A DNA stretch of 64,000 nucleotides from Candidatus Cloacimonadales bacterium (GCA_963667035.1 OY762964.1:2592001-2656000); one strand, 5' to 3'; shown: positions 42,840 through 60,189, counted from the stretch's first letter. Numbers and translations: made by a program. Notes: generated by a model from the letters alone, not told the origin.

Positions 42840-44037
42840 TTTTCCCCTCTTTAGTTAGTCTATTAAACAATGCCACAGCTCTATCGTTTTTCAATCTGAA
42901 TACTTGTATTCCTGTCAGTGAATGCTCATTATAGACAAAATCCCACTCTTTGAAGTTCTCAATCACACCTCGAGCACCTTTACCATTAGCTCCGGCACCG
43001 AGAATCAAGATATCAGGTTTCATCTCAAAAATAGTGTTTAAATCTCTCGCATTGAACGATGATTTCTTATCAACCGGTCTGAATGTCCCATTAGGGAATA
43101 TCATGACATCGTAAAACGGTATAACGAAGCCTTTATAGATAGTAAGACCATTGGAAATATGAGTTATACCCTTATCTTTATTAAAAAAGAAGAATACACT
43201 CTGTCCGATTATCAAGGCTATTAACAGACCCAGGAAAAGTCTTTTGAAAAACTTGATTCTACTAAAATGGAAAACTATAAAGAATAGTACAAAACCTAGG
43301 ATAGTAAGCCCTATTATCCTCATCCAGTAAATCTTATCTGTGAATAAAGAGCTATTCAGAAGTAAGAAGAATACGAATACTGCCTGTAACAAAAGCATAC
43401 TAAGCGGGGAAGAAGAATAATCTTTCAGCTTCTCCTGCCTAAACTTCCAACCATTCTTAGCTATCTCTCCATGCTCAATCATAAAGAATACAAATGTGAG
43501 TCCAATGATTGCTCCCCACCCATCTTTTCCGATGTCTGATATGTCAAATATCCTACTTGAGATAAATACTTGAGCAAATTCATCAAATATAGAAGCACAT
43601 AAAGCCATTATGAAAGTCCATTTTATCACTTGGACATCAGTTGCTCCTCTCTCTCTGAACAATCTGAAAGCAATAAAAGCAAAAATCCCATAGGCAAAAT
43701 AGTGCCAATTGAACTGTAACTCATAGAAAGCATGATTAAAATAATAGTCTGATAGCTTCTGCCCTATACCAAATAGGATTATGATAACTCCCAACACTCC
43801 CCAACGCCACAAATCCATCTTCTTTCTAACGCTTATAAGCAGTGTAAGAAGGAGTATTACAGCTATTACAAGTACATTGGGTATAAAGTACTCTCCTACA
43901 TTGAATCCTGACCTTGATAAGTCACCTATGGCTCTTTGCAGATAGTTCTGTAGCATTAAAAAAGGTGTTAATACTAACAAGGCAATGTATAGCACCATTT
44001 GCCATAACTTAGAAAAAAATAAACTCTCTTTATTCAT
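42808..44037 (-). CDS. Multi-TM VanZ-like protein fused to a C-terminal Mth938/DUF498-like domain
   Basis: HYFAYG..SIFDEFAQVFISSRIFDISDI (VanZ); DVMIFPNG..KPDILILGAG..GIQV..AVALFNRL..GKNVLFIIHTT (Mth938-like). Confidence 0.7.
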   Translation of the reverse strand: MNKESLFFSKLWQMVLYIALLVLTPFLMLQNYLQRAIGDLSRSGFNVGEYFIPNVLVIAVILLLTLLISVRKKMDLWRWGVLGVIIILFGIGQKLSDYYFNHAFYELQFNWHYFAYGIFAFIAFRLFRERGATDVQVIKWTFIMALCASIFDEFAQVFISSRIFDISDIGKDGWGAIIGLTFVFFMIEHGEIAKNGWKFRQEKLKDYSSSPLSMLLLQAVFVFFLLLNSSLFTDKIYWMRIIGLTILGFVLFFIVFHFSRIKFFKRLFLGLLIALIIGQSVFFFFNKDKGITHISNGLTIYKGFVIPFYDVMIFPNGTFRPVDKKSSFNARDLNTIFEMKPDILILGAGANGKGARGVIENFKEWDFVYNEHSLTGIQVFRLKNDRAVALFNRLTKEGKNVLFIIHTTE

Positions 44038-44134
44038 CTGTTTCCCCTTGTGAAATAATCTGTTTAGCAGAATGTTTTAAGTCAAGAGATAAATTCGGAT
44101 ATTTATGAAGCATAAATAGTTAGTGTTTATTGCT

Positions 44135-44162
44135 AAAATGGCGACCGGTAGGTCGCCATTTT
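44135..44162 (-). terminator. Terminator after surface paralog 1
   Basis: AAAATGGCGACC-N4-GGTCGCCATTTT. A second hairpin TCCGGAACT..AGTTCCGGA lies at 44197-44227. Confidence 0.8.
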
Positions 44163-44236
44163 TGGTAGTTAGGGAGATCATTTATGAGAAAACATCTCCG
44201 GAACTGCCCCCTAACAGTAGTTCCGGATAATAATGA

Positions 44237-47200
44237 TTATTTCTTCTTATTAACTTTAAGCTCAGGTTTGTGTTCTTTATATTCTGCCCATCTTAAACTT
44301 CTCAGATTTGTTCTTTGACTTAGACTGAATACAGGAGCTGCAACACGTACAGGAGCTTCGTCAGTTGCTGTCACTTTTACGAAGTAATGATTACCGGGAA
44401 GTAAAGATGCATCCATAGTAGCTGAGTTTGTTGGCCATGAACTTAGATAAGTTAACTCATTAGCTTCAAATTCCGGTGTTTCTTCTACATATACTTTGTA
44501 AAGTGTAGCACCGGAAACAGCATCCCATGTTAGATTCATTAAACTACCGTCATATGATAATGAAATGTTTGCAGGTATATCTAGTGGTATTGGAGGTTCA
44601 ACCAAATCTTCTACTGAAGTAGCAAAAGCTATTGCCAGGTCATTTGATATAGGACCGCCTACACCGTTGTTTCTGTATTGGATACCAATTGTTCCGTCAG
44701 CATTCTCTATACCGATACAGGCATCGCCGGCAATTGATTCAACACCTGAATCACCGTTAGGATTTAAATAGTTCTGATATTGTATTTTTATCCTTCCGCT
44801 AGGATAAAGTATTACTTGAACATCAATGTATTCATTTAAATCACTGTAATCGTTGTACATCATTGCAGTATAAACAAAGTTGCCGGCTACATCATTTCCA
44901 TAGTATAGTACCGATGGTATATCTTCAGGATCTGAGTCCATGGATGCAAATGCTATTACATCATTAGGTCCGGAAGAATTAGGAATAACCAAATTCTCAT
45001 GATTTTGCCAGCCTGAGTCAACTGTGCCAAACTGAATTGTTCCGTTAGAACAGATAGACAACTCGGTATAATCATTACCAAAGTAATTGAAAGTAAATCC
45101 AATAGGAACATTCTGTGCAGAAGCATCATCTCCAAGTGAAATTACAGTACCGGTTTCACTGATATCTACCCACTCAAAGGTAGGTTGATAGCCTAAAGCA
45201 CTACCTTCATCAGTATTATTAGCAAAGTAGTAACCATCATAAAGTGTACCGTCTCCACCATAGTTAGGATTAGATAAAGTAGTGTAACTATAACTAGCTT
45301 CCGGTGCAGGGCCTTCACCATTCTGATTATAACCTGTTACATACCAGTAATATGTTGTATCATAATCAAGAGGAGATGTAAGAACCACACCTGTATAGTC
45401 GCCAACATCTGTTTGGATAAATTCTTCATTATCCAAGCTTACGTACAAGTAATAACCTGAAGCCCAACTGTCAGCATTCCACTGGAATGTAGTGTATTCA
45501 CTTATACCGGTAGCAAGATTTTCCGGTGTAGTCAAAACAATCTCTTCAGGAGTGTTTGCATAAGTAGTAAAACTCCATACAGGACATTCAGTTGCATTAC
45601 CATTTGCATTGTAAGGGATTACTTGCCAATAATGTGTAACGCCACCGGCCAAATCAGTAACATCATAGGTTAAATCTGTGCCATTATCATTCATGCTAAG
45701 AATATTTGTTGGTGGATTATCTGTACCGAAATTCAAATAGTACCCATCAGCGAAGTTAGCAGAATTCCACTCAATAGTTAATGCAAATTCTTGATCAATA
45801 GCCCCGTCAGCAGGTGATACTGCTGTTGTAGCTGCAGGAGGTGTAGCTACTGTTGTAAAGCTCCATACAGAAGCTCCACTGGCATCACCGTTAGCATTGT
45901 AAGGTACTACTTGCCAATAATATGTAACGCCACCGACTAAACCACTATAATTATAAGTAGTTGCATCATCTTGGTTAACCCCATTTAGAATATTTGTTGG
46001 TGGATTGTCTGAACCAAAATACAATTTATAGCCGTCGGCATACAAAACACTATTCCATTCAAGTGTTCCTACTGCAAGCTGATCAACAGCCTCATCGGCA
46101 GGTGATACGAGTGTAGTAACTGCTGGAGGTGTAGTGTTATCAAAAATGTAGATGTCATCTATTGCGATATCTCCAAGATAGCTGGTTGATTCCATACCTC
46201 TAAAGTCTAAAGATACGGTTTGTCCTGCATATTCCGAAAGATTCACCAAACCCATCATCCATTCAGATTGTCCTTCAGGAGATGCAATAGTTACTACGGA
46301 TTCATCAGTTGTTTCACCATTAATAACATCTATATGCAATTCAGTAGTATTAGCATTCTTTCCAATCCAATAGTAGAAAGTAAAAACCGGATTTGTCAAA
46401 CTACTCAAATTGAAAGTAGGTGTATATAGATGAGCAGGAATTACGTTAGGATCTGAATCATCAAGGAACATCATATATCCGCTATTACCTGTATGCTCAG
46501 AAGATGCTGTATAATCATAAGACGTACCTTGATAAGTTTGCCAACCATTATTGCTTGAATCAGGATTACCTACCCATTCAAGTGGAAATTCAGCAGTGTC
46601 AAAAGACTGTGTATAAGGGAAAGCTGCAATAATGGGATCAAATCCTTCACCTTGTACCGGAATATTATGAGTTTCTCTCGTAACATTGTCAACAATCACA
46701 ATATTGTCGCTGACAATTCCTTCAGAAACAGGTTGGAAAGTAACTTCAAATGAAGCAGATTGAGTCGGTGCAAGAGTTAATGGATATGAATTACTATCAT
46801 TTATCGAGAAGTAAGTTCCTGTTGCCATTGCAATCGGATTATTAATTACCAAGTCTGCTCCACCATTATTAGTAATAGTAAACATTTGAGCATCACTTTG
46901 TATATTGATGTAACTCATTCCAAAATCTTTGGATTCTGGATTTATTGAGAACTCAGGTATTTCAGGAATATCACCGAACAGTATTCTAATATTCGGAATC
47001 GAAGTTCTAAGATAGGATGCAGTCGGAGGACCTGTTGGATCTGGATTAGTTGAATCACTTCTATAAATTAGAGAACGACTTTCCTCAACTGTTGTACAGA
47101 AGAATTCATCTGAATTAGTTTCGCAATTTGTTTGATTTTCATCAATGGCAATAACTAAATTATCAGTATTATTATAATTGAAAGGCATATCCAAATTTAA

Positions 47201-48268
47201 CTCAATCCAACAATCTTCTGTTGGATAAGGGTCTAGGGTCACAGAAGCAACTTGCATCAAGTTATCGACTGAAATCCAATCAGTTGTTGAGGCAAACTCT
47301 GTTAAATTGGTATGTCCCATATAGATAACCCACTGAGTTGAATGTTCAAGATCACTATAACCATTGTAATGATACCAAATTTTCTCTATTCTTCTGCTCT
47401 CGACATTTACCTCACTTTGAAGATAGATGCTTTGAGAATATGAATAGCCATAATATGGCTCGATGGGGAGACCTTCGCCTACAACACTTCCATTACCAAT
47501 AGCAATAACATCTGGACCCAAAGGAGTAGAGAATGAATAAACAGGAGATTCAGCTTGTAGTCTTACTACAGTATTCTTTGAAATCACTTTCCAGTAATAT
47601 GTTGTTGTATAAGCTAGTCTTCCCGGAGAATAGTTACCAGCTTCTCCGGCAGTAGCATTATCTATAACCAAATTAGTTGGTGGATTATCTGTACCAAAAT
47701 ATAAGTCATAAGTCTCAGTATTAGCACCAAAAGTCCATGATATTGAAGTGTTTGTTGGCAAATCAAGAGCACCATCTGCAGGTGAAATATTTGAGATTAC
47801 TTCAGGTGTACTAGGGTCTTCGATTACAGCACTCATATCGATTTGATAAGCACCTTCAGAATCATCCCATCCTTCCACAACTATGTAATAATCAGTATTA
47901 GCATCAAGGGCTAAATCTAATAATGAAGAAGTATTATTAGGAAGACTAGAGCCATCCGGGTAATATCCATCATCATTAGACCAAAGCTGAGTAGTTTGAT
48001 CTGCAGCATAAACACGCAAGTATGTGTCAAAACTTGAATTATCAAGTAATATATCAAGATCAAGAATTGCGAATGGTGAATTAATCACATAGAATGCATC
48101 TGCACTAGCATTATCAATAGTATTTGTTAATGTAGTTGTATCCCCAGTGTCGGTATAGGGAAAGTCAGTATTTGTAATCGGGACAGCAGTAGCAAAAGTA
48201 TCTCCCCCAATAGCAAACAATCCTAAAACCAAAACAAATAACATAAGGGTCAATATACTTTTTTTCAT
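44237..48268 (-). CDS. Large secreted surface protein, tandem paralog 1 (PPC-like, FN3/SusE-like repeats, ASH-Ig, MAM-like, terminal FN3 and basic tail)
   Basis: Signal peptide; modules shared with 5537..10999; no PNPF C-terminal domain. Confidence 0.85.
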   Translation of the reverse strand: MKKSILTLMLFVLVLGLFAIGGDTFATAVPITNTDFPYTDTGDTTTLTNTIDNASADAFYVINSPFAILDLDILLDNSSFDTYLRVYAADQTTQLWSNDDGYYPDGSSLPNNTSSLLDLALDANTDYYIVVEGWDDSEGAYQIDMSAVIEDPSTPEVISNISPADGALDLPTNTSISWTFGANTETYDLYFGTDNPPTNLVIDNATAGEAGNYSPGRLAYTTTYYWKVISKNTVVRLQAESPVYSFSTPLGPDVIAIGNGSVVGEGLPIEPYYGYSYSQSIYLQSEVNVESRRIEKIWYHYNGYSDLEHSTQWVIYMGHTNLTEFASTTDWISVDNLMQVASVTLDPYPTEDCWIELNLDMPFNYNNTDNLVIAIDENQTNCETNSDEFFCTTVEESRSLIYRSDSTNPDPTGPPTASYLRTSIPNIRILFGDIPEIPEFSINPESKDFGMSYINIQSDAQMFTITNNGGADLVINNPIAMATGTYFSINDSNSYPLTLAPTQSASFEVTFQPVSEGIVSDNIVIVDNVTRETHNIPVQGEGFDPIIAAFPYTQSFDTAEFPLEWVGNPDSSNNGWQTYQGTSYDYTASSEHTGNSGYMMFLDDSDPNVIPAHLYTPTFNLSSLTNPVFTFYYWIGKNANTTELHIDVINGETTDESVVTIASPEGQSEWMMGLVNLSEYAGQTVSLDFRGMESTSYLGDIAIDDIYIFDNTTPPAVTTLVSPADEAVDQLAVGTLEWNSVLYADGYKLYFGSDNPPTNILNGVNQDDATTYNYSGLVGGVTYYWQVVPYNANGDASGASVWSFTTVATPPAATTAVSPADGAIDQEFALTIEWNSANFADGYYLNFGTDNPPTNILSMNDNGTDLTYDVTDLAGGVTHYWQVIPYNANGNATECPVWSFTTYANTPEEIVLTTPENLATGISEYTTFQWNADSWASGYYLYVSLDNEEFIQTDVGDYTGVVLTSPLDYDTTYYWYVTGYNQNGEGPAPEASYSYTTLSNPNYGGDGTLYDGYYFANNTDEGSALGYQPTFEWVDISETGTVISLGDDASAQNVPIGFTFNYFGNDYTELSICSNGTIQFGTVDSGWQNHENLVIPNSSGPNDVIAFASMDSDPEDIPSVLYYGNDVAGNFVYTAMMYNDYSDLNEYIDVQVILYPSGRIKIQYQNYLNPNGDSGVESIAGDACIGIENADGTIGIQYRNNGVGGPISNDLAIAFATSVEDLVEPPIPLDIPANISLSYDGSLMNLTWDAVSGATLYKVYVEETPEFEANELTYLSSWPTNSATMDASLLPGNHYFVKVTATDEAPVRVAAPVFSLSQRTNLRSLRWAEYKEHKPELKVNKKK

Positions 48269-48414
48269 AATTGGATAACTCCATATATATTGTTGTTTAG
48301 TATTAATTTGTTTGAAAAGCTATTTATGAATACAAAACTCTCGTTTCGTATTCTGAATAGAATTCGAATATTCTCCTTGTTGTCCTGGTGCATTTCCTTT
48401 TACACCACCCCTTT

Positions 48415-48496
48415 AGATAATCCTTTCATTGTTTCTTAGAGCTTTGTGGTTATGTGGATGTGTTTTGGTGTGTTCAGCTCTTCAAAACAACTATCT
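48415..48496 (-). ncRNA. Putative structured leader element (stem enclosing a C/A-rich loop), copy 1
   Basis: AGAUAGU..UUGUUUU-GA-AGAGCU [..CCAAAACACAUCCACAUAACCACAA] AGCUCU-AA-GAAACAA..AUUAUCU. Confidence 0.45.
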
Positions 48497-48772
48497 CAGA
48501 TCATTTTTTGTTTCCGGTATTTTATTTCTTCCGGTACGAAATTTCCTTCTTTTTACTGTACTTCAGCCACATTTGTCCTACCTCCTGTGGACCAAAATAC
48601 ATTGATACAACGCAAATTTGGTTTAATATCAATTTCCTTGTCAAGAGTTTTTTGAATTCACTAATTGCTAAAAAGATTATTTTGATTCTGTAAAATGCTT
48701 AGATTATTGAGTAGATTTAAATTATGAATTTGTTTCAATAAGTGTTTTTATTATTGTTTCTTTACCATTAAC

Positions 48773-48803
48773 AAAAAAAGACGACTCCTTACGAAGTCGT
48801 CTT
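48773..48803 (-). terminator. Terminator after paralog 2
   Basis: AAGACGACT..AGTCGTCTT followed by a T run on the minus strand. Confidence 0.8.
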
Positions 48804-48824
48804 GATTTTCTGATAGATTTATGT

Positions 48825-51800
48825 TTATTTAACTATCTTTTTACCCAATTCCGGTTTAGGCTCAATGTATTCTATCCATCTTAAGTTTCTGAGATTTACT
48901 CTTTGACTAATACTGAATACAGGAGCTGCAACACGTACAGGAGCTTCGTCAGTTGCTGTCACTTTTACGAAGTAATGATTACCGGGAAGTAAAGATGCAT
49001 CCATAGTAGCTGAGTTTGTTGGCCATGAACTTAGATAAGTTAACTCATTAGCTTCAAATTCCGGTGTTTCTTCTACATATACTTTGTAAAGTGTAGCACC
49101 GGAAACAGCATCCCATGTTAGATTCATTAAACTACCGTCATATGATAATGAAATGTTTGCAGGTATATCTAGTGGTGTTGGAGGTTCAACTAATTCTTCT
49201 ACTGAAGTAGCAAAAGCTATTGCCAAGTCATTTGATATAGGACCACCTACACCGTTGTTTCTGTATTGGATACCAATTGTTCCGTCAGCATTCTCTATAC
49301 CGATACAGGCATCGCCGGCAATTGATACAACACCTGAATCACCGTTAGGATTTAAATAGTTCTGATATTGTATTTTTATCCTTCCGCTAGGATAAAGTAT
49401 TACTTGAACATCAATGTATTCATTTAAATCACCGTAATCATTGTACATCATTGCAGTATAAACAAAGTTGCCGGCTGCATCATTTCCATAGTATAGTACC
49501 GATGGTATATCTTCAGGATTTGAGTCCATGGATGCAAATGCTATTACATCATTAGGTACGGAAGAATTAGGAATAGCTAAATTCTCATGATTTTGCCAGT
49601 TTGTGTCAACTGTACCAAACTGAATTGTTCCGTTAGAACAGATAGACAACTCGGTATAATCATTACCAAAGTAATTGAAAGTAAATCCAATAGGAACATT
49701 CTGTGCAGAAGCATCATCTCCAAGTGAAATTACAGTACCGGTTTCACTGATATCTACCCACTCAAAGGTAGGTTGATAACCTAAAGCACTACCATTAACA
49801 GTACTATTGGCAAAGTAGTAACCATCATAAAGTGTACCGTCTCCACCAAAGTTAGGATTTGCCAGAGTTGTGAAGCTATATGTTGCAACAGGTGCAGGTC
49901 CTTCACCATTACTATTATAGCCGGTTACATACCAATAATATGTTGTGTTATAATCAAGAGGTGATGTAAGAATCACACCTGTATAATTACCAACATCTGT
50001 TTGGATAAAGTCTTCATTATCCAAACTTACATACAAATAATAACCGGTAGCCCAACTGTCTGCATCCCACTGGAATGTAGTGTATTCACTTATACCTGTA
50101 GCAAGATTTTCCGGTGCAGTCATAACAATCTCTTCAGGAGTACTTCCATACGTAGTAAAACTCCATACAGGGCAATCAGTTGCATTACCGTTTACATTGT
50201 AAGGAATTACTTGCCAATAATATGTTATCCCGCCAGCTAAATCACTATAATTATAAGTAGTTGCGTCATCTTGATCAACTCCATCTAGAATATTTGTTGG
50301 AGGATTATCTGAACCAAAACTCAAATAATAACCATCAGCAAAAGGCACACTATTCCATTCAAGGGTTCCTGCTGAAAGCTGATCAACAGATTCATCGGCA
50401 GGTGATACTAGTGTAGTAACTGCTGGAGGTATAGTGTTATCAAAAATGTAGATGTCATCTATTGTGATATCTCCATAGAAACTTGTTGATTCCATAGCTC
50501 TAAAGTCTAAAGATACGGTTTGTCCCGCATATTCCGTGAGATTCACAAAACCCATCATCCATTCAGATTGTCCTTCAGGAGATGCAAAAGTTGCTACGGA
50601 TTCATCAGTTGTTTCACCATTCACAACATCTATATGCAATTCAGTAGTATTAGCATTCTTTCCAATCCAATAGTAGAAAGTAAGAACCGGATTTGTCAAA
50701 CTACTGAAATTGAAAGTAGGTGTATATAGATGAGCAGGAATTACGTTAGGATCTGAATCATCAAGGAACATCATATATCCGCTATTACCTGTATGCTCAG
50801 AAGATGCTGCATAATCATAAGACAAACCTTGATAAGTTTGCCAACCATTATTGTTTGAATCAGGATTTCCTACCCATTCAAGTGGAAACTCAGCAGTGTC
50901 AAAAGACTGTGTATAAGGAAAATCTGCAATAATGGGATCAAATCCTTCACCTTGTACCGGAATATTATGAGTTTCTCTCGTAACATTGTCAACAATCACA
51001 ATATTGTCGCTGACAATTCCTTCAGAAACAGGTTGGAAAATAACTTCAAATGAAGCAGATTGAGTCGGTGCAAGAGTTAATGGATATGAATTACTATCAT
51101 TTATCGAGAAGTAAGTTCCGGTTTCCATTGCAACCTGATTGTTAATAACCAAGTCTGCTCCACCATTATTAATAATAGTAAAAGAGTGAGCATCACTTAG
51201 ACTATTAATATAGGTCATACCGAAATCATAAGAGTCAGGATTTATTGAGAACTCAGGTAGTTCAGGAACATCACCAAACTGAATCCTAATATTTGGGATA
51301 GAAGTTCTCAGATAAGATGCAGTCGGAGGTTCTGTTGGATCAGGATTGTTTGAATCACTTCTATACATAATTGAACGACTTTCCTCAACTGTTGTGCAGA
51401 AGAATTCATCTGTACTTGACTCACAACCTGTTTGATTCTCTTCAACAGCAATAACTAAGTTATCAGTATTGTTATAACTGAAAGGTGAATCCAAGTTAAA
51501 CTCAATCCAACCATCATCTGTTGGATAAGGATCTAGTGCCACTGAAGCGACTTGCGTCAAGTTATCGATTGGAATCCAGTCTGATGTAGAGGCAAACTCT
51601 GTTAAATTGGTATGACCCATATAGATAACCCACTGAGTTGAATGTTCAAGATCAGTAGAGCCATTGTAGTGATACCAAATTTTCTCTATTCTTCTGCTCT
51701 CGACATTTACCTCACTTTGAAGATAGATACTCTGAGAATATGAATAGTAATAAAATGGTTCGATGGGGAGACCTTGGTCTACAACACTACCATTACCAAT

Positions 51801-52916
51801 AGCAATAACATCGCTACCAAGATTTGTAGTAAAATTGAATAAACTCTCTGTTCCAATAGAGCTAATCTCATTTTTAGCAACTACTTTCCAATAATATGTT
51901 GTAGCATTAGAAAGTCTACCCGGTATATAAGTTCCACTTGCACCGGCTATTCCATCAGTTATAACTTGAGCAACTGGAGGATTAACTGTATCAAAATATA
52001 AATCATATGTTTCAGTATTTACACCAAAATCCCAAGTTAAAGTTGTTCCAATACTTACATTCATTGCATTATCATCAGGGCTTGGTGATGTTGCTAATCC
52101 GGGTGTTAAATCAATAGTTGTGAAACTATAAACCTGGTTGTTTGTATCTTCACTAACTGAATTCTTAGAAACAACCTTCCAATAATAGGTAGTATTATCT
52201 AACAAATTACTACTAGGTGTATAAGAACCAACTGAAGCTGTACCATCAGTCACAACCTGAACAACAGGTGGATTAACTGTATCAAAATATAAATCATATG
52301 TTTCAGTATTTGCCCCAAAATCCCAAGTTATACTTGTTGTAATTGGTTGATTTATTGAGTCATCTAACGGACTTACATTTGATATTAATTGAGGAGATAA
52401 TGCGTCTATATATATCTCCGGTCCTACGATTTCATCAAGAAGTGTTGGATAACCATAATCATCGATTGCTCTAAATCGAATGTATGCATTGTTTGTTTGT
52501 GCATAGGTTTCAAGATTGTAAGTATGCGACTCATATTCTTCTGCATTTAGTAAGTGATCAATTTCTATCCAAGTCTCTGTACCATCAGTAGAAATCTCAA
52601 TGTATAATTCATTCTGATCTTCAGACCAATCAGCTGCTTTATACCAGAAACTCAATTCATCTGTTTCACTAGCTGTTAAGTCTAATCTAGGGGTTATCAA
52701 AACACCTTCTGAGCCACGATTAGATGTGCCATTGAATCCAGCAGCATGATAACCGGTATAAAAATTAGTGCTTTGTACCCAAGCATGACCTGAAATTATT
52801 GTATTTTCCCAATCTTGTGGAGGGAATCCGTTTTCAAACCCTTCGTTTAATTGCACAGCAAAGATTGAAGTTGCAATCAGAAAAAGAATGGAAACAATTA
52901 ATGTTAATCTTTTCAT
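48825..52916 (-). CDS. Large secreted surface protein, tandem paralog 2 (cleaved-adhesin-like N-terminus, FN3/SusE-like repeats, ASH-Ig, MAM-like, terminal FN3 and basic tail)
   Basis: EGFENGFPPQDW..LITPRLDL; middle and C-terminal blocks near-identical to paralog 1; N-terminus resembles paralog 3. Confidence 0.85.
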   Translation of the reverse strand: MKRLTLIVSILFLIATSIFAVQLNEGFENGFPPQDWENTIISGHAWVQSTNFYTGYHAAGFNGTSNRGSEGVLITPRLDLTASETDELSFWYKAADWSEDQNELYIEISTDGTETWIEIDHLLNAEEYESHTYNLETYAQTNNAYIRFRAIDDYGYPTLLDEIVGPEIYIDALSPQLISNVSPLDDSINQPITTSITWDFGANTETYDLYFDTVNPPVVQVVTDGTASVGSYTPSSNLLDNTTYYWKVVSKNSVSEDTNNQVYSFTTIDLTPGLATSPSPDDNAMNVSIGTTLTWDFGVNTETYDLYFDTVNPPVAQVITDGIAGASGTYIPGRLSNATTYYWKVVAKNEISSIGTESLFNFTTNLGSDVIAIGNGSVVDQGLPIEPFYYYSYSQSIYLQSEVNVESRRIEKIWYHYNGSTDLEHSTQWVIYMGHTNLTEFASTSDWIPIDNLTQVASVALDPYPTDDGWIEFNLDSPFSYNNTDNLVIAVEENQTGCESSTDEFFCTTVEESRSIMYRSDSNNPDPTEPPTASYLRTSIPNIRIQFGDVPELPEFSINPDSYDFGMTYINSLSDAHSFTIINNGGADLVINNQVAMETGTYFSINDSNSYPLTLAPTQSASFEVIFQPVSEGIVSDNIVIVDNVTRETHNIPVQGEGFDPIIADFPYTQSFDTAEFPLEWVGNPDSNNNGWQTYQGLSYDYAASSEHTGNSGYMMFLDDSDPNVIPAHLYTPTFNFSSLTNPVLTFYYWIGKNANTTELHIDVVNGETTDESVATFASPEGQSEWMMGFVNLTEYAGQTVSLDFRAMESTSFYGDITIDDIYIFDNTIPPAVTTLVSPADESVDQLSAGTLEWNSVPFADGYYLSFGSDNPPTNILDGVDQDDATTYNYSDLAGGITYYWQVIPYNVNGNATDCPVWSFTTYGSTPEEIVMTAPENLATGISEYTTFQWDADSWATGYYLYVSLDNEDFIQTDVGNYTGVILTSPLDYNTTYYWYVTGYNSNGEGPAPVATYSFTTLANPNFGGDGTLYDGYYFANSTVNGSALGYQPTFEWVDISETGTVISLGDDASAQNVPIGFTFNYFGNDYTELSICSNGTIQFGTVDTNWQNHENLAIPNSSVPNDVIAFASMDSNPEDIPSVLYYGNDAAGNFVYTAMMYNDYGDLNEYIDVQVILYPSGRIKIQYQNYLNPNGDSGVVSIAGDACIGIENADGTIGIQYRNNGVGGPISNDLAIAFATSVEELVEPPTPLDIPANISLSYDGSLMNLTWDAVSGATLYKVYVEETPEFEANELTYLSSWPTNSATMDASLLPGNHYFVKVTATDEAPVRVAAPVFSISQRVNLRNLRWIEYIEPKPELGKKIVK

Positions 52917-53051
52917 TTGTGAATAACTCCATAATTAATAATAATTAAAGAAGTTGAAATAAATAGTTGAACGCTTCTCCGTACTACACCTTTATCTCAT
53001 ATCTCCTTGTAACTGCGGTACATCAATAAAGATATACCAATCTTGCAATTT

Positions 53052-53126
53052 ATCTGAAGGTGTCGGTGAATCTTGTGGGTTGTGGATGTGTTTGGATTAT
53101 TTTTCCCCCTGACAACCTAAACAGAT
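53052..53126 (-). ncRNA. Putative structured leader element, copy 2
   Basis: AUCUG..AGGUUGUC..GGAA [..CCAAACACAUCCACAACCCACAAGA] UUCACC-GACACCU..CAGAU. Confidence 0.45.
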
Positions 53127-53310
53127 CTTATTCAATGGGAAACATAATTTTATAAATTTGTGCATCTCCTACCATGTTAATACACAAAATATATCTCCCA
53201 TACTAAATAGAGTTTTGATTATCCTATAAAATAATGTCAAGACATTTTTTTCTTTATCTATTATTAAAGCAATATGAATGTGTAATATACTCTTGCAAAT
53301 GAGTATGCAC

Positions 53311-53342
53311 AAAAAAAAGACGACCCCTTGCGAAGCCGTCTT
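53311..53342 (-). terminator. Terminator after paralog 3 (homologous to 48773-48803)
   Basis: AAGACGGC..GTCGTCTT followed by a T run on the minus strand. Confidence 0.75.
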
Positions 53343-53365
53343 AGTTGTAGGTTTATCTTTTTTTC

Positions 53366-56300
53366 TTATTTTTCTTTTTTCAGATTCTCTTCAAGCTTTG
53401 GTTCTTTATATTCCATCCAGCTTAGATTTCTGAGATTTGTTTTTTGACTTAATCTAGAAGAAGGTGCTCCTATGGGAGCAGGAACTTCTTCATCTGTTGC
53501 GGTAACTTTTACGAAATAGTGACTACCAGTAAATAAAGATACATCCATAGATGCAGAATTTGTAGACCATGAACTTAAATAAGTTAACTCATTAGCCTCA
53601 AATTCAGGTGTTTCTTCTGCATACACTTTGTAAAGAGTAGCACCTGATACTGCATCCCATGTTAGGTTCATAACACTACCGTCATAAGAAATAGAAACAT
53701 TTTCCGGAGTTGTTATAAGTCCGGCAGGTTCTGCAAGTCCTTCGAGACTACTAGAATAGGCAATTGCCATATTCTCTAACATCGGTCCACCTTCGCCATT
53801 GTTTCTATATTGTATACCAACTGTTCCATCTGCATTCTCGATACCTATACATGCATCTCCTGGTATTGAAAGACTTCCGGTATCATCGTAAAGATTCACA
53901 TAGTTCCTATATTGAACCTTGATTCTACCGTTAGGGTAAAGAATAACCTGCATATCCATGTATTCATCATAATCATCGTAATCATTCCACATTTCTACAG
54001 TGTAAACAAAATTGCCATTGGCGTCATTCCCATAATAGCAATTTGATGGAATATCAGTTGTATGCATATCCATTGCAGAAATCGCAATTACATCATTTGG
54101 AGTAGATGCATTAGGAATTGTCATATTAGATCCTGTCGAGGTAGCAGGATTAGAGAACATTACATATCCATTTGTTCCAAGGTAAATCTGAGTATAGTCA
54201 TTACCAAAGTAATTGAACGTAAATCCTATATCAACTGTAGCATAACCATCATCAGCACTTGTATATGATGGAGAAGTACCTGTTTCACTTATATCAACCC
54301 AACCAAAAGAAGGTTGATATCCTAATCCATTTCCACCGGCAGTACTATTAGCGAAATAGTAACCACCATACAATACTCCATCACCACCGTAATTTGGATC
54401 TGATTGAGTTGTGAAACTAAATGTGTTAGTCGGAGCAGGGCTTTCACCATTAGGATTATAACCTGTTACATACCAGTAGTAAGTTGTTTCATAATCTAAA
54501 GGAGAAGTCAACGTAACACCGGTAATATCACCAACATCAGTCTGGGTAAAATTCTCGTTATCCAAACTTACATACAGATAATAGCCATCAGCCCAGCTAT
54601 CACTGTTCCACCTAAATGTTGTATATCCATCTACATTGGTTGCTGCATCAGTAGGTGTAGTCATTGTGATTTCTTCCGGAGCATTGCCATAAGTTGTGAA
54701 ACTCCATACCGGGCATTCATTAGTATTACCATTTGCATTATAAGGAACTACTTGCCAATAATATGTAGTACCACCATTTAAGTTAGTAGCATTATAGGTT
54801 AAGTTAATACCATTATCTTGCATATTAAGAATATTAGTAGGTGGATTATCAGTACCTAAATTCAAATAGTAACCGTCTGCAAATGCAACTGTATCCCATT
54901 CAAGTGTTATTTCAAACGGTTGTTCAATAGCTGCATCAGAAGGAGAAACCAGTGTTGATGTTGCTGGAGGATTGGTATTATCAAATACGTGAACATCATC
55001 CAAACAAATATCACTATTGTAATCGGATCCGGTTATTGCTCTAAAACGTACTCTAACCTCATCTCCATAACCGCTTAACAAGAAACTATGCAAGAACCAT
55101 CCTGTGCCTTGATTACCAGAAATAGCAGGAGCTACATCTTCATTCCAAGCAGTTCCATCCCATATATCAAAATGTAACTCACCCATTGTACTACCATACA
55201 TGTTATAATAGAATGAGAATGTAGGATTAGTTAATGATTCAATATTGAAAACAGGTGTAAGTAAATCAAATCTCTCATTTGGATGACTTGTAGCTTCTGT
55301 AAAGATAAACAAGCCATCTCCGGAAGTATGGTCACCAGATGTCGGGCCTGTCGATGAAGAAGGTGTTGAATCACTGATAGTCCAGTCACTATCATCTTCT
55401 GTACCTTGTTCCCATGGAACTGTAAGTTCTCCGCCATTTTCAAAATCTTCGTCATAAGGATATGAAGAAATTACCGGATCAAAACCTTCTCCTTGAACAG
55501 GAATACTGTGCGTTAATCTAGTGATATTATCAACAATCACAATATTATCATTGAAAACTCCTACAGAACTAGGACTAAATGTCACTTCAAATGTTACATT
55601 ATCAGTAGGAGCTATTGTGATAGGGTAACTATTATTATCGGTAACATTGAAGTTTGCTCCGTTTTCCATAGCTATCGGATCATTAATAATTAAATCCGCT
55701 CCACCATTATTAGAAATTGTAAATGTTGGTGCATCGCTAGAAGTGTTAATGTAAGTAATTCCAAAATCATAAGAATCCGGATTTATGAAGAACTCAGGTT
55801 GCTCCGGAAGTTCTCCGAATTTCATTCTAATGTTTGGAATATAATTATATATCCCGGCAGCTACCGGAGGAGCTACAGGATCAGGATTTGTGTTATCATT
55901 CCTATACATTATTGAGCGACTTCCTGTAACTGAAGAACAATAAAACTCATCACTACTTGTTTCATAACCGGATTGATTATCTTCAACTGCAATAACTAAG
56001 TTATCAACATTGTTATAAACAAACGGTGTATCTAATGCAAACTCAATCCAGCCCTCTTCAGTAGGATACGGATCTAAAGTTACAGAAGCAACTTGCAATA
56101 AGTTATCAATTGATATCCAATCAGTATTAGTAGCAAACTCAGTCAAGCTTGTGTGACCCATATAGATTACCCACTCACTGGTGTTGTCAAGATCACTAGA
56201 GCCATTATAATAGTACCAAATCTTTTCTATTCTCTGGTTTGCAAAATCAATTTCACTTTGCAGATAGATACTTTGTGAGTATGAATATCCAAAGAATGGA

Positions 56301-57457
56301 TCAACAGGGAGACCTTTATCAGTGATAGTACCAGTTCCAATGCCAACCATATCAGGACTCAATGCTGTTGTAAAGCTGAATGAATTCTCAGTTGTTCTAA
56401 CAGTATTTGAATTCTTGGAAACAACTTTCCAGTAATATGTAGTATCATAAGCGAGTCTACCCGGATTATAGTTTCCAGTGCCACTACAGATTCCATCTGT
56501 AACAACTTGATTAACCGGAGGATAAACTGTATCATAATATAGATCATATGATTCCGCATTTTCTCCGAAACTCCATGAAATTGAGGTGCCTATGCTTTCA
56601 CTAAGTGCACCATCTTCAGGACTAAGTCCGAATATATCTGCAGGTAACCAATCTTTTGTTGTAAAACTATATACTGGATTAATAGTATCATCTCTAACAG
56701 AATTCTTACAAACAACCTTCCAGTAGTATGTCGTGTCGTCATTTATAATACCACTTGGAGTGTAAGCTCCAATAGAAGCAACACCATCTGTTACAACTTG
56801 AATCAATGGAGGATTCACCGTATCTAAATACAAATCATAAGTTTCTGTGTTTACTCCAAAGTCCCAAGTTATTGTCGGTGTAACGGATTGATTAGCTGAT
56901 TCGTTTTCCGGACTTATGTTTTCAATGTATCCTGGAGCTAATGGATCGATATAGATTTCAGAAGCTACAACATCATCAAGAAGTGTTGGATAACCATAAT
57001 CATCAATTGCTCTAAATCTAATATATGTGGTGTTTGTTTGTGTATAAGTTTCTAGATTGTAAGTGTGTGATTCGAAATCTTCTGCATTTAATAAATGGGC
57101 GATTTCTATCCAATTCTCTGCACCATCAGTGGAAATCTCTACATAAAGTTCATTCTGATCACTGGACCATATTGGCGCTTTATACCAGAAACTCAGTTCA
57201 TCTGCTTCACTTACAGTTAAATCTAATCTCGGTGTTAAAAGGACGCCTTCAGAGCCACGATTAATTGTACCCATGAATTGGGCTGAATAGGAACCGGTAT
57301 TAGCACTAGTTCCTTGAATCCATGCATGACCCGTGACTATATTGTTCTCCCAATCCCGAGGAGGGAAATCGTTTTCGAATCCTTCTGTTAACTGCAAAGC
57401 AAAGATTGAAGTTGCAATAAGAAAAAGAATGAAAACAGTTAATGTTAATCTTTTCAT
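53366..57457 (-). CDS. Large secreted surface protein, tandem paralog 3 (contains a clear MAM domain)
   Basis: DDSDW..TPSSSTGPTSGDHTSGDG.FIFTEA..FSFYYNMYGSTMG.L..GNQG..W..DICLDDV; same terminal FN3 and basic tail. Confidence 0.85.
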   Translation of the reverse strand: MKRLTLTVFILFLIATSIFALQLTEGFENDFPPRDWENNIVTGHAWIQGTSANTGSYSAQFMGTINRGSEGVLLTPRLDLTVSEADELSFWYKAPIWSSDQNELYVEISTDGAENWIEIAHLLNAEDFESHTYNLETYTQTNTTYIRFRAIDDYGYPTLLDDVVASEIYIDPLAPGYIENISPENESANQSVTPTITWDFGVNTETYDLYLDTVNPPLIQVVTDGVASIGAYTPSGIINDDTTYYWKVVCKNSVRDDTINPVYSFTTKDWLPADIFGLSPEDGALSESIGTSISWSFGENAESYDLYYDTVYPPVNQVVTDGICSGTGNYNPGRLAYDTTYYWKVVSKNSNTVRTTENSFSFTTALSPDMVGIGTGTITDKGLPVDPFFGYSYSQSIYLQSEIDFANQRIEKIWYYYNGSSDLDNTSEWVIYMGHTSLTEFATNTDWISIDNLLQVASVTLDPYPTEEGWIEFALDTPFVYNNVDNLVIAVEDNQSGYETSSDEFYCSSVTGSRSIMYRNDNTNPDPVAPPVAAGIYNYIPNIRMKFGELPEQPEFFINPDSYDFGITYINTSSDAPTFTISNNGGADLIINDPIAMENGANFNVTDNNSYPITIAPTDNVTFEVTFSPSSVGVFNDNIVIVDNITRLTHSIPVQGEGFDPVISSYPYDEDFENGGELTVPWEQGTEDDSDWTISDSTPSSSTGPTSGDHTSGDGLFIFTEATSHPNERFDLLTPVFNIESLTNPTFSFYYNMYGSTMGELHFDIWDGTAWNEDVAPAISGNQGTGWFLHSFLLSGYGDEVRVRFRAITGSDYNSDICLDDVHVFDNTNPPATSTLVSPSDAAIEQPFEITLEWDTVAFADGYYLNLGTDNPPTNILNMQDNGINLTYNATNLNGGTTYYWQVVPYNANGNTNECPVWSFTTYGNAPEEITMTTPTDAATNVDGYTTFRWNSDSWADGYYLYVSLDNENFTQTDVGDITGVTLTSPLDYETTYYWYVTGYNPNGESPAPTNTFSFTTQSDPNYGGDGVLYGGYYFANSTAGGNGLGYQPSFGWVDISETGTSPSYTSADDGYATVDIGFTFNYFGNDYTQIYLGTNGYVMFSNPATSTGSNMTIPNASTPNDVIAISAMDMHTTDIPSNCYYGNDANGNFVYTVEMWNDYDDYDEYMDMQVILYPNGRIKVQYRNYVNLYDDTGSLSIPGDACIGIENADGTVGIQYRNNGEGGPMLENMAIAYSSSLEGLAEPAGLITTPENVSISYDGSVMNLTWDAVSGATLYKVYAEETPEFEANELTYLSSWSTNSASMDVSLFTGSHYFVKVTATDEEVPAPIGAPSSRLSQKTNLRNLSWMEYKEPKLEENLKKEK

Positions 57458-57593
57458 TTGTGAAAAACTCCCTAATAATTAATAATTAAAGAAGTTGAAA
57501 TAAATTGTTGAATAATCTCCGCAACTACACTTTTTATCTCAAATCTCCTCGTAACTACAGCATATCTATTTAGATATACCAATCCTGTACTTT

Positions 57594-57667
57594 ATCTGAA
57601 TGTGTCGGCGAATCTTGTGGGTTGTGGATGTGTTTGGAATTACATTCTCCCGACTACCAAAACAGAT
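57594..57667 (-). ncRNA. Putative structured leader element, copy 3
   Basis: AUCUG..GUCGG..GAAU [..CCAAACACAUCCACAACCCACAAG] AUUC-G-CCGAC..CAGAU. Confidence 0.45.
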
Positions 57668-57859
57668 CAATATTAATGGGAAAGATTAAATCTAAAATGC
57701 ATTAGCGTATTCCTACCAAGTAAATACACAGAAAACATCTCCCATACCAATCTAAACATTGTCAATCGAGTGTAATAGTGTCAAGGAATTTTTACTTTAT
57801 CTATCATTATAAATAATTGAATGTGTATAATTAGACTCCAAATGGGCATCTAGTTATTG

Positions 57860-57888
57860 AAAAAAGCCGGATTTAAAAGTCCGGCTTT
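57860..57888 (-). terminator. Terminator after the Spy/CpxP gene
   Basis: AAAGCCGGA..TCCGGCTTT hairpin with a T run on the minus strand. Confidence 0.8.
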
Positions 57889-57918
57889 GCTTTATATTCT
57901 CAATTCTAAGAGAGAGGG

Positions 57919-58473
57919 TTATTTACATCCGCCCATATTCATTTTATGCATTCTACCGTTAGGGAATGTCTTTATTGTTTCTTTAACTTCATTCTTTTGG
58001 TCGTCTGTTAGCTTATTATAGATGCTTTGAATCATCTTAATTCTGCTTTCATGCATTTTACCTTTTGCATTATTAATCTGCTCTGAAACTTTAAGAGCTT
58101 TGTTGAAGTCTGCATTCTTCATGTAGTTGTGCATATCAATTTCAAGGTTTTCAATTTCAGCTTTCTTGAGATTAGCTTCTTTTCTGTGATTTTCCTTAAT
58201 TAATGTAATGTCATCTTCCTGAGCATCTGTTAAGTCGAGTTTATAGATAGCCATCATCATTCCGTCACCATGCATTCCTTTGCCACAAGCATTGTGCTTC
58301 ATGCCTTGACCTTTCATTCCTTCGTGCCTCATTCCAAAACCTTCACCTCTCATTTCACCTTTACCCATCCTGCAATCGTCGTCTTTCATCATTCCGTTTC
58401 TGTGCAGTCCTTGAGCAAATACCGAGGCAACTAACATTGTTGCTATTGCTAATACTAATACTATCTTTTTCAT
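57919..58473 (-). CDS. Spy/CpxP family periplasmic chaperone
   Basis: Signal peptide, Met/Gly/His-rich N-terminus, two LTxxQ motifs (LTDAQ, LTDDQ). Confidence 0.85.
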   Translation of the reverse strand: MKKIVLVLAIATMLVASVFAQGLHRNGMMKDDDCRMGKGEMRGEGFGMRHEGMKGQGMKHNACGKGMHGDGMMMAIYKLDLTDAQEDDITLIKENHRKEANLKKAEIENLEIDMHNYMKNADFNKALKVSEQINNAKGKMHESRIKMIQSIYNKLTDDQKNEVKETIKTFPNGRMHKMNMGGCK

Positions 58474-58958
58474 TTTTCACTCCTTTCTTTTGGTCTCCTA
58501 TGCGGATACCTTTTATCAATGTGCCCATCAAAGGCATCTCTGTATTTTTTTGTTTCCTCAATTGAGGATGATTTTCTTATTTCTATAAGTTTACTTGAAA
58601 AGCTTTCACTTAAGACCTGTGATCTATCTGACATCATAGTTTTAAGAGAATCCAGTTTTGTATAGGATGGATTATCTTTCATTAACTCTTGAAAGAACTG
58701 TTTCTTCAAACCCTCAATCGTGCAGATATTATCTTTAATCTCTGTACTCATGAGCTTCTTCTTCATTTCATGAGGCAATCTATGTTCCGGTCCTCGAGGT
58801 CCTTTGAAATTTCTTACAGGAGGTCTTTCAAAAGGACGAGGAAAAGGACGTCCATCATACTTGGCAATCTGAATACCTCTAAAGATAAATGATGATATAA
58901 ACGCCAGATTAAATACTAATGATATAATCAAGAGGATATGATACTTTTTACTTATCAT
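58470..58958 (-). CDS. Periplasmic heavy-metal sensor / ZraP-like protein
   Basis: ISLVFNLAFI TM motif, Pro-rich linker, helical domain. Start moved to ATG 58958 with GGAG RBS. Confidence 0.6.
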   Translation of the reverse strand: MISKKYHILLIISLVFNLAFISSFIFRGIQIAKYDGRPFPRPFERPPVRNFKGPRGPEHRLPHEMKKKLMSTEIKDNICTIEGLKKQFFQELMKDNPSYTKLDSLKTMMSDRSQVLSESFSSKLIEIRKSSSIEETKKYRDAFDGHIDKRYPHRRPKERSEK

Positions 58959-58959
58959 T

Positions 58960-59361
58960 TTAATCTCCCAGCATTGAACTATACAAGAAAGTATTTTCAA
59001 CCGTATCGAGTGCAGACACATCGGTTGCACCAATTGACGCTGTTGACCAAAAAGCCGTGAAAATACCAAGGTAGAGGGATAGTGCTACTGCAGCTCCATA
59101 AGTTATAAACTTAAGATTAAATCCACGTCTTGTTTTTTCATCCATAGCTCGGGCTTCTGCCATAATCCTGACTGACAAATAATCAGGAGCTTCTACATCC
59201 GGAGTTGATTGCATGATTGAATCCAGTAATTCAGCTTTCTTGACTTCCGCTCGACACAGAGGGCATGCCTGAAGGTGAGTTTCATAACTCAATCTTTCTT
59301 CTCTGTCCATCTCGTTAGCAAGATATCTGTTTACTTTCTTATAGTTGTTTTTGCAATTCAT
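58960..59361 (-). CDS. Zinc-binding anti-sigma factor (zf-HC2)
   Basis: MNC...HLQACPLC (HxxxCxxC) followed by a TM helix; overlaps the ECF sigma stop. Confidence 0.85.
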   Translation of the reverse strand: MNCKNNYKKVNRYLANEMDREERLSYETHLQACPLCRAEVKKAELLDSIMQSTPDVEAPDYLSVRIMAEARAMDEKTRRGFNLKFITYGAAVALSLYLGIFTAFWSTASIGATDVSALDTVENTFLYSSMLGD

Positions 59362-59876
59362 TTTAAAACTCCTTCAATCATATTGACATTGGAAACTTCA
59401 ATTTCCTTCTCAATAATTTTTCTTAACCTCTTTTTTGCTCTTACAAGCTTGGATTCCAAGGCTTTAACAGAGCATCCAAGAGTATCCGCCATCTCTTTAT
59501 AACTGAGCTTTTGGTAATATTGTAATTCAATCAACATTGCCACTTTGGGCGGTAACTTTACTATAGCTTTTTTCACAACATCCATATAGATGTATTCTTC
59601 TTCCGATGGAGCATATATATTATCAATGACAAAATCCGGTGCAGACGTAATTTTCTTCTTTTTGTTCAAATAATTAATCGCTTGATTTCTAGCGGCTCTG
59701 TATAGATATGCAAGTTCTTTCCCATCTTCCACATCATCCATCTTCGCATAGAATTTCAAGAATACACTTTGAGTCAAATCCTCTGCATCTTCTTTTTGTC
59801 TTACAAACTTCAGAAGATAATTAAACAATCTCGTCTGATTATCTCTCACTACTTTTTCGAATAACTCTTTTTTCAT
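59358..59876 (-). CDS. ECF RNA polymerase sigma factor
   Basis: DAEDLTQSVFLK, YLYRAARN (region 2); LSYKEMADTLG..S.L.RAKKRLR (region 4). Confidence 0.92.
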   Translation of the reverse strand: MKKELFEKVVRDNQTRLFNYLLKFVRQKEDAEDLTQSVFLKFYAKMDDVEDGKELAYLYRAARNQAINYLNKKKKITSAPDFVIDNIYAPSEEEYIYMDVVKKAIVKLPPKVAMLIELQYYQKLSYKEMADTLGCSVKALESKLVRAKKRLRKIIEKEIEVSNVNMIEGVLK

Positions 59877-59945
59877 ATACGCTCCGTCTATATTGACAGC
59901 TAAAATTAAATTCCCTTCATTTTTTATATATTATTCCTCATATTA

Positions 59946-60189
59946 CTATTTACAAAGTAATTGTACCGTCCTTATCATGCAATCCTTTAATCCGGCATCG
60001 AAGAGTAGAGAGCCTTCTTTGTTGTAAATAGTTCTTGCTCGGGAGATAGTTAGGACTCCATCCTCGATCTCTTTAACTACTTTGCGTTTAAATACTTCAC
60101 TATAACATAATGCTGTTTTCTGTTTCATTTTCTATAAACCTTTACTCTCTCTCATTTCTTAATGTGTCTACTTTATTTAGGACGATATA
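59946..60189 (-). mobile_element. IS3-family remnant (truncated OrfA HTH plus left-IR-like end)
   Basis: YSEVFKRKVVKEIEDG.LTISRAR..Y (HTH_Tnp_1-like); IR-like TATATCGTCCTAAATAAAGTAGACACA at 60189-60163; no OrfB. Confidence 0.6.

Follow-up and report, generated by a model that had tools for sequence, protein, structure and literature searches.

A conserved C/A-rich loop on covarying stems in the leaders of three tandem surface-protein genes: a candidate structured RNA from Candidatus Cloacimonadales

We have analysed a 64,000-nucleotide (nt) stretch of the genome of a Candidatus Cloacimonadales bacterium (GCA_963667035.1, OY762964.1:2592001-2656000; hereafter the window, numbered from its first letter), in which three tandem paralogous genes on the minus strand are each preceded by a long leader containing a candidate structured RNA element. 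The element consists of a large, C/A-rich and almost G-free loop carrying invariant sequence words, presented on stems that differ in sequence between copies. The gene products are adhesin-like secreted proteins containing MAM, Ig-like, FN3-like and choice-of-anchor D/J domains, and a PDB sequence search with the paralog 1 protein returned MAM and FN3 relatives only. The genes are:

44237-48268, minus strand, paralog 1 gene, 1343 amino acids
48825-52916, minus strand, paralog 2 gene, 1363 amino acids
53366-57457, minus strand, paralog 3 gene, 1363 amino acids

An alignment and a covariance model were built from the window leaders and the orthologous leaders of two other species of the same genus. 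The model finds seven copies, three in the genome to which the window belongs (G000) and two each in G001 and G003, all located before signal-peptide genes. As a first-pass annotation of the sequence had reported, a C/A-rich motif is present at 48444-48468, 53073-53095 and 57615-57637, its messenger RNA (mRNA) sense being the minus strand. In each leader the motif lies within the loop of a stem designated P1:

48444..48475, minus strand, leader 1 P1 loop, 32 nt with 1 G; motif 48444-48468 with ACAUCCACA and CCACA; predicted unpaired probability 1.00
53073..53103, minus strand, leader 2 P1 loop, 31 nt with 0 G; motif 53073-53095; predicted unpaired probability 0.64
57615..57644, minus strand, leader 3 P1 loop, 30 nt with 1 G; motif 57615-57637; predicted unpaired probability 0.92

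Across the seven copies the P1 loop is 30-36 nt long and contains 0-2 G and 11-13 C. None of the seven departs from ACAUCCACA or CCACA, which are separated by 3 to 5 variable nt, and ∼160-180 nt lie between the motif and the downstream ATG. From copy to copy the distance between the starts of the two fixed CCACA words is 7, 8 or 9 nt, a variability more in keeping with flexible RNA than with a phased DNA operator. A third CCA-type word occurs upstream of them at a position that shifts between copies. In the 3.1-Mb genome there are three matches to the pattern AACACATCCACAN{1,4}CCACAA, all of them on the gene strand, and none to the reversed control pattern. Within the window, a fixed-gap version of the pattern allowing up to 3 mismatches gave 3 matches versus 0.06 expected, two of which are exact (leaders 2 and 3); a match with three mismatches at 3002-3021 was taken as chance. 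C/A-rich 22-mers of this kind are rare, numbering 17 in the genome, and the three leader motifs are among the eight that lie outside long open reading frames (ORFs). The motif is found in the orientation of its gene only (3/3 copies in G000 and 7/7 overall) and with its stems present, rather than in either orientation without stems, the arrangement that the first-pass annotation had associated with a DNA-binding site.

The conserved core starts ∼110-150 nt into each leader and is ∼125-135 nt long. It is composed, in order, of the 5′ strand of a closing helix (P0), the two-part stem P1a and P1b, the loop, a short junction with the 3′ strand of P0, an 8-pair hairpin (P2) and a Shine-Dalgarno (SD)-like word, A(C/U)(A/G)AGGAG. 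P0 lies in GAUCUG and pairs GAUCU with GGAUU in type 1 leaders and AUCU with AGAU in type 2, the two subtypes into which the copies fall. The window cores and their helices are:

48373..48502, minus strand, leader 1 core, covariance-model scores 133.9 and 128.7 bits; P0 48498-48502/48419-48423, P1a 48484-48489/48432-48437, P1b 48476-48480/48439-48443, P2 48400-48407/48386-48393, ACAAGGAG 48373-48380
53003..53127, minus strand, leader 2 core, covariance-model scores 111.2 and 109.1 bits; P0 53123-53127/53051-53054, P1a 53109-53114/53061-53066, P2 53032-53039/53016-53023, ACAAGGAG 53003-53010
57545..57668, minus strand, leader 3 core, covariance-model scores 100.5 and 99.9 bits; P0 57664-57668/57593-57596, P1a 57650-57655/57603-57608, P2 57574-57581/57558-57565, ACGAGGAG 57545-57552

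In the core alignment 36 of the 137 columns are invariant, 14 of them within ACAUCCACA and CCACA, and the invariant runs are GATCTG, ACATCCACA, CCACA, GAT and AGGAG. Enclosing stems of differing sequence are present in all three window leaders, as had been claimed. Leaders 2 and 3 are 83% identical and their stems are therefore homologous; leader 1 is 57-58% identical to either over the whole leader, and identity between subtypes is 57-61% overall. The further claim that leader 1 is not obviously alignable to the others has to be corrected, as GAUCUG, GAU(U/A)A and AGGAG are also invariant and the second hairpin is common to all. The 5′ strand of P0 (48498-48502, 53123-53127 and 57664-57668, minus strand) contains an invariant GATC, extended to AGATCT in 5/7 copies. 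Downstream of the core, leaders 2 and 3 carry three-codon mini-frames, AUG AGA UAA at 52992-53000 and UUG AGA UAA at 57534-57542 (minus strand), which begin 2 nt after the conserved AAGGAG/GAGGAG and are not conserved in the other five leaders.

Covariation among homologues, which the first-pass annotation had proposed as a check, is observed: double-sided, compensatory changes occur in 9 of the 24 model pairs, four in P1a, two in P1b and three in P2. In the seven sequences standard pairs occupy 87.8% of 156 cells, versus 34-49% after a shift of the 3′ partners by 1-3 columns, and the observed values were reached by 0/500 shuffles on four of five measures and by 4/500 on the fifth. Minimum free energy (MFE) folds of the seven whole leaders recover P1 and P2 in six and P0 in five, the loop region of leader 2 being folded differently, and in such folds the mean unpaired probability of the motif is 0.64-1.00 compared with 0.40-0.51 leader-wide. 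The proposal that G-U pairs favour the mRNA strand is likewise borne out, G-U pairs accounting for 22 of 137 paired cells. In six copies the fold of the sense strand is more stable than that of the antisense by 0.8-7.5 kcal/mol, and in the seventh it is less stable by 0.7 kcal/mol. Of the suggested structured cis-regulatory or untranslated region (UTR)-derived RNA with a single-stranded loop, the structure and the unpaired loop are thus supported by covariation and folds, whereas a separate UTR-derived RNA is not, no terminator or processing signal being found after the core.

An eighth, diverged copy occurs before a further tandem paralog in G003 (contig C249, leader ∼2813-3173 of L201, core ∼3005-3150). 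Although missed by the model, it has a predicted fold of identical topology (P0/P1a/P1b/loop/P2; z −3.1) on stems of different sequence. Its loop is C/A-rich, with AUCCACA replaced by ACCCACA and the second CCACA lost. This copy adds covariation to that of the other seven.

A second conserved structure, designated hairpin A, precedes the core. The annotation had described an upstream hairpin containing GGUAGGA in all three paralogs, and we find a hairpin showing GUAGGA in 3/3 window leaders and 7/7 overall:

48557..48601, minus strand, leader 1 hairpin A, GGAGGUAGGAC in the loop, MFE −16.6 kcal/mol, z −3.73, 0/200 shuffles fold as well
53157..53188, minus strand, leader 2 hairpin A, stem GUGUAU/AUGCAC plus an extension, GGUAGGAG in the loop, −11.4 kcal/mol, z −3.10
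57705..57729, minus strand, leader 3 hairpin A, stem GUGUAU/AUACGC, UUGGUAGGA, −10.5 kcal/mol, z −1.99

The hairpin A stems also covary in the seven leaders (CCACA/UGUGG, AACA/UGUU, GCGG/CUGC, UAGGUAA/UUAUCUA, GUGUAU/AUGCAC, GUGUAU/AUACGC and GAUGUAU/AUACAUC), with z-scores from −0.5 to −3.7. GUAGGA is located in or beside the loop in all copies and is partly paired in two. Kissing of the GUAGGA and CCACA loops was considered and rejected, at most 3-4 pairs being possible by eye.

Terminators, putative promoter elements and translation starts delimit the leaders:

48778..48803, minus strand, intrinsic terminator of paralog 2 (11-pair stem, then T run), upstream limit of the paralog 1 unit
53317..53342, minus strand, intrinsic terminator of paralog 3, upstream limit of the paralog 2 unit
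57863..57888, minus strand, terminator hairpin after the LTXXQ/Spy-like gene, upstream limit of the paralog 3 unit
48639..48644, minus strand, leader 1 TTGACA (−35-like box), preceded by an A tract
53235..53240, minus strand, leader 2 TTGACA box
57779..57784, minus strand, leader 3 TTGACA box; second TTGACA at 57760-57765
48266..48282, minus strand, real SD of paralog 1 (GGAG, 48279-48282) and ATG (48266-48268)
52914..52930, minus strand, real SD of paralog 2 (GGAG, 52927-52930) and ATG (52914-52916)
57455..57471, minus strand, real SD of paralog 3 (GGAG, 57468-57471) and ATG (57455-57457)

The terminator scan placed the 57863..57888 hairpin on the plus strand; its T run is visible on the minus strand. 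These features are best explained if each paralog forms its own terminator-bounded transcription unit with its own promoter and long leader. From TTGACA to ATG the leaders measure 376, 324 and 327 nt (leaders 1, 2 and 3), in agreement with the ∼330-380 nt first given. TTGACA is invariant in 7/7 leaders and preceded by an A tract, and a −10-like nAAAtT, read by eye, lies 17-18 nt downstream. This conserved TTGACA-N17/18-nAAAtT pattern suggests a start site upstream of the motif and thus transcription through it, in which case roughly 290-340 nt of leader would be transcribed. A consensus sigma-70 scan returned no minus-strand promoter in any of the three window leaders because the −10 is non-canonical, and a genome-wide profile around CTTGACA did not have enough signal to define the −10 box, most such sites being coding.

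The element is restricted to one genus, where it is present in 7-8 copies. Among 61 genomes of the genus, family and order, model R1 detects it in G000, G001 and G003 only, and model R2 finds the same three among the family's 12 genomes, with none in the genus's fourth species (83% complete, 450 contigs) or in eight genomes of two sister genera. In a 151-genome phylum sample covering 53 genera, R2 detects G000 and G001 only, G003 lying outside that sample. Metagenome contigs contained no stretch matching the strict motif pattern and no relative in a search anchored on the LTXXQ protein; a looser pattern in genome-collection contigs gave at least 119 stretches, and the 80 loci checked contained no credible model match (best E 0.36). 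Two candidate sets were discarded: matches to the motif pattern with 2 mismatches over the 61 genomes, which were mostly chance, and a weak G001 match (E 0.2), which is inside a coding region.

Within the genus the leader is confined to genes at this one locus type, although the N-terminal domain of paralog 1 belongs to a large family of 1000-2400-amino-acid secreted proteins with 25 matching segments in G000, 44 in G001 and 15-25 per sister-genus genome. Five other paralogs for which the full upstream region is readable have no motif, and their TTGACA lies only ∼110-190 nt upstream of the start; a sixth locus is cut 36 nt upstream of its gene. With filters off, model R2 found nothing below E = 1 at 22 loci of other paralogs. 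The genes with the leader have the same location in G000 and G001, flanked on one side by an operon encoding an extracytoplasmic function (ECF) sigma factor, anti-sigma factor, unknown protein and LTXXQ (Spy-like) protein and on the other by a VanZ/DUF498 gene. This neighbourhood is not found around the LTXXQ homologues in G002, in G003 or in the sister genera. The operon, directly upstream of paralog 3 at 57919-59876 on the minus strand, consists of four genes for the ECF sigma factor, a zinc-finger-type anti-sigma factor, a 199-amino-acid protein without a family match and the LTXXQ/Spy-like periplasmic protein. The paralogs themselves are mosaic. Paralogs 1 and 2 are 87% identical over the last 534 amino acids with different N-termini, and identity between paralogs 2 and 3 is 62% over the full length. 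The pairing of leader subtype with N-terminal domain type also changes between species, one copy (G001_b) combining a type-2 leader with a type-1 N-terminus. Combined, these observations indicate recombination within the cluster.

The initial impression that no known riboswitch is involved agrees with a search of Rfam 15 over 44000-60000 on both strands at E up to 5, in which no leader was matched; four weak matches (17-26 bits versus gathering scores of 40-100) all lie outside the leaders, and the locus of the eighth copy returned nothing relevant. Nor was a description of the element found in literature searches on Cloacimonadota riboswitches and RNA motifs or on CA-rich leader-binding proteins of Bacteroidetes. 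An intrinsic terminator was found in none of the three window leaders, only the preceding genes' terminators being detected, and no conserved upstream ORF (uORF) is common to the seven. With regard to candidate trans-acting factors, the genome contains no specialised NusG, the single PF02357 match being a housekeeping-size NusG, and Hfq was not found in it. CsrA (PF02599) has 0 matches in this 98.2%-complete genome, in a search whose control matched 3/14 known genomes. One RRM protein, at ∼872.3 kb, KhpA-type KH proteins, with KhpA at ∼2,344.9 kb, and Rho are encoded. Complements of the motif of at least 10 nt, its own antisense aside, all fall inside long ORFs genome-wide and in numbers at or below chance; a short small RNA (sRNA) seed of 6-8 nt is possible. 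A loop-to-leader duplex scan revealed no position-conserved partner for the loop within the leader, which fits recognition in trans.

We interpret the element, with moderate confidence and from comparison of sequences, as a genus-restricted cis-regulatory leader whose loop would serve as a single-stranded landing pad for a sequence-reading trans-acting factor. This follows from the combination of invariant words, flexible spacing, a large loop on varying stems and the lack of an internal partner, which points to a reader of RNA sequence acting in trans. In the proposed mechanism, the leader RNA would first fold the hairpin showing GUAGGA and then the three-helix core of closing helix P0, two-part stem P1 and hairpin P2. 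P1 would hold open the almost G-free loop with its two or three CCACA-type words, the sequence of which would be read by the factor, most likely an RNA-binding protein or, less likely, an sRNA with a G/U-rich seed. Its binding may then control the yield of the 4-kb mRNA, by an effect on translation, on stability or on premature termination. That such a factor exists, what it is and what its regulatory effect would be are inferences from these features.

Several observations weigh against this interpretation. The alignment in which pairs were counted was fitted to the model, and related sequences can exceed shuffles without any structure. Sampling is thin, amounting to seven full copies of two subtypes from three species of one genus, and P0 is uninformative as four of its five pairs never vary. 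The eighth copy lacks the exact words, so that a strict sequence reading is not universal. Placement of the start site upstream of the motif is a deduction from the promoter pattern. Genome-wide complements of at least 10 nt yielded no trans partner, and a consistent expression platform is absent: there is no intrinsic terminator, and competition for the SD is predicted in type-2 leaders only. In these three of the seven leaders, both the real SD and the AAGGAG upstream of it are predicted to pair with one CUUC/UUCC element (pseudo-SD/anti-SD/SD), an arrangement not seen in the four type-1 leaders.

The lack of an intrinsic terminator implies that any attenuation would be factor-dependent, and the loop might then be a Rho loading (rut-like) site, the leader acting as a Rho-dependent attenuator before a 4-kb gene with structure or a bound factor deciding the outcome. 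The organism encodes Rho, its leaders are long (324-376 nt from TTGACA to ATG), untranslated and devoid of a conserved uORF, and the loop resembles rut sites in being C-rich and G-poor. rut sites are, however, usually 60-80 nt long and degenerate in sequence, whereas the G-free tract here, closed off by a stem, extends over only ∼30 nt and has 14 letters that never vary. These properties point to a sequence-specific reader, and we consider Rho loading unlikely.

We regard as improbable a role for the loop as a translation enhancer that needs no factor, or as a standby platform for ribosomes, in which unstructured A/C-rich RNA would capture the 30S subunit via S1 and might be silenced by an sRNA; a standby model has reportedly been published (PMC5934652). 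The loop is rich in ACA words, is predicted to be single-stranded and is accompanied by SD-like words, AGGAGG in the hairpin A loop of some copies and AAGGAG after P2. Composition would however suffice for an enhancer, which does not call for 14 invariant letters, and paralogs of the same family have equally good SDs without the loop. C/A-rich, ACA-containing 5′ UTR elements have been described as translation enhancers and targets of the sRNA GcvB in enterobacteria (PMC3879156), and the published cases consulted lie far closer to the start codon than the ∼160-180 nt observed here. The GcvB-targeted elements are also G-free C/A-rich single strands in envelope and transport mRNA leaders for which combined enhancer and sRNA landing functions were proposed. 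They differ in being at or just upstream of the SD and Hfq-dependent, whereas the present element is remote from the start codon and held in a 30-36-nt hairpin loop in a genome without Hfq and with no complementary sRNA candidate found.

There is similarly little chance that the leader is a functionless relic of duplication, its copies similar through recent ancestry or gene conversion. All copies do belong to one recombining paralog cluster in one genus, the G003 contig C249 copy has already decayed in the motif, and other paralogs do without the leader element. Against this, the flanks of the subtypes are near background (57-61% identity in A/T-rich sequence) while the 14 loop letters are invariant across three species, compensatory changes keep the stems, and a conversion tract of only ∼20 nt in every copy is unlikely.

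A metabolite or ion riboswitch, with the pocket formed by the P0/P1/P2 junction and the large loop, appears very improbable. The multi-helix core, the invariant junction letters (GAUCUG, GAU and AGGAG), the covarying stems and the predicted competition between AAGGAG and the real SD for the CUUC/UUCC element in the three type-2 leaders are what such a switch might look like. That scheme is, however, missing from the four type-1 leaders, no terminator is present in the leader and Rfam gives no match; the conserved letters are gathered in one long unpaired loop rather than in junctions, and the distribution, one surface-protein gene family in one genus, offers no metabolic link. A DNA-level site, whether an operator or a recombination or phase-variation site of the tandem paralogs with incidental stems, is barely credible, for in spite of direct TGTGG repeats on the complement, the invariant GATC in P0, clearly recombined tandem mosaic paralogs and the operon for an ECF sigma and an anti-sigma factor that is adjacent in G000 and G001, the enclosing stems covary, a single orientation is used, the site is >140 nt downstream of the −35 box, the repeat spacing of 7-9 nt is not helical-phase and, as weak evidence from contigs only, contigs of three runs of one sample are identical to the window across the leaders with no joint at the motif.

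A landing pad for a trans-acting factor remains the reading we prefer, and two known systems bear on it in addition to GcvB. CsrA/RsmA-type leaders also present a short invariant word in hairpin loops on varying stems at several sites per leader, and a GGA-containing word is present here in hairpin A (GUAGGA, 7/7), with further AGGA words following. They differ in that the dominant conserved word here is CCACA-type rather than GGA, overlap of a site with the real SD is not conserved and a CsrA gene was not found. The second system is the RRM protein RbpB of Bacteroides thetaiotaomicron with its sRNAs FopS and GibS. RbpB binds RNA in single-stranded regions, and mRNAs for outer-membrane proteins are enriched among the targets predicted for its partner sRNAs (PMC11697453; PMC13370968); Bacteroides, a related lineage, likewise lacks Hfq and CsrA (PMC11697453), and one RRM protein is encoded here. 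In contrast, the FopS family is contained in Rfam, yet no Rfam match was obtained here, and the link to RbpB is one of analogy only.

Two further repeat-associated features were observed elsewhere in the genome, outside the window. Three matches to Acido-Lenti-1 (RF01687) occur at G000:C1 ∼785,700-787,300, with 41, 36.7 and 30.9 bits against a gathering score of 37; they are inside tandem direct repeats of 137-250 nt, each followed by a C-rich tract and a hairpin. A CRISPR-like array at G000:C1 ∼397,960-398,420 is composed of ∼36-nt repeats, seven full copies plus a partial first, and is the only CCCCT cluster of the genome.

The general kind of element, a leader hairpin showing a recognition word, is well known, and its importance is limited by the narrow range of one genus and 7-8 copies; the word, the fold and the lineage are undescribed, which makes it a credible new candidate as judged from its sequence. 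A more far-reaching proposal, which we put forward tentatively and hold to be doubtful, is that the CCACA loop and GUAGGA hairpin together constitute the receptor of a new regulator which recognises RNA by its sequence, be it an RRM protein, a KH protein or an sRNA with a short seed, and which would co-ordinate the expression of the tandem surface adhesins or make it mutually exclusive. If that were true, the receptor would represent a new riboregulatory module and not a variant of a catalogued one. If the element is real, the RNA family collections would gain an uncatalogued structured leader, the large surface proteins would be marked as a small regulon, and a ∼130-nt RNA bait with a 14-letter invariant signature would be available for fishing out the regulator. 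Cloacimonadota are abundant, uncultured fermenters of anaerobic digesters in which, to our knowledge, post-transcriptional control is uncharted, and the element, if real, would provide a first handle on it.

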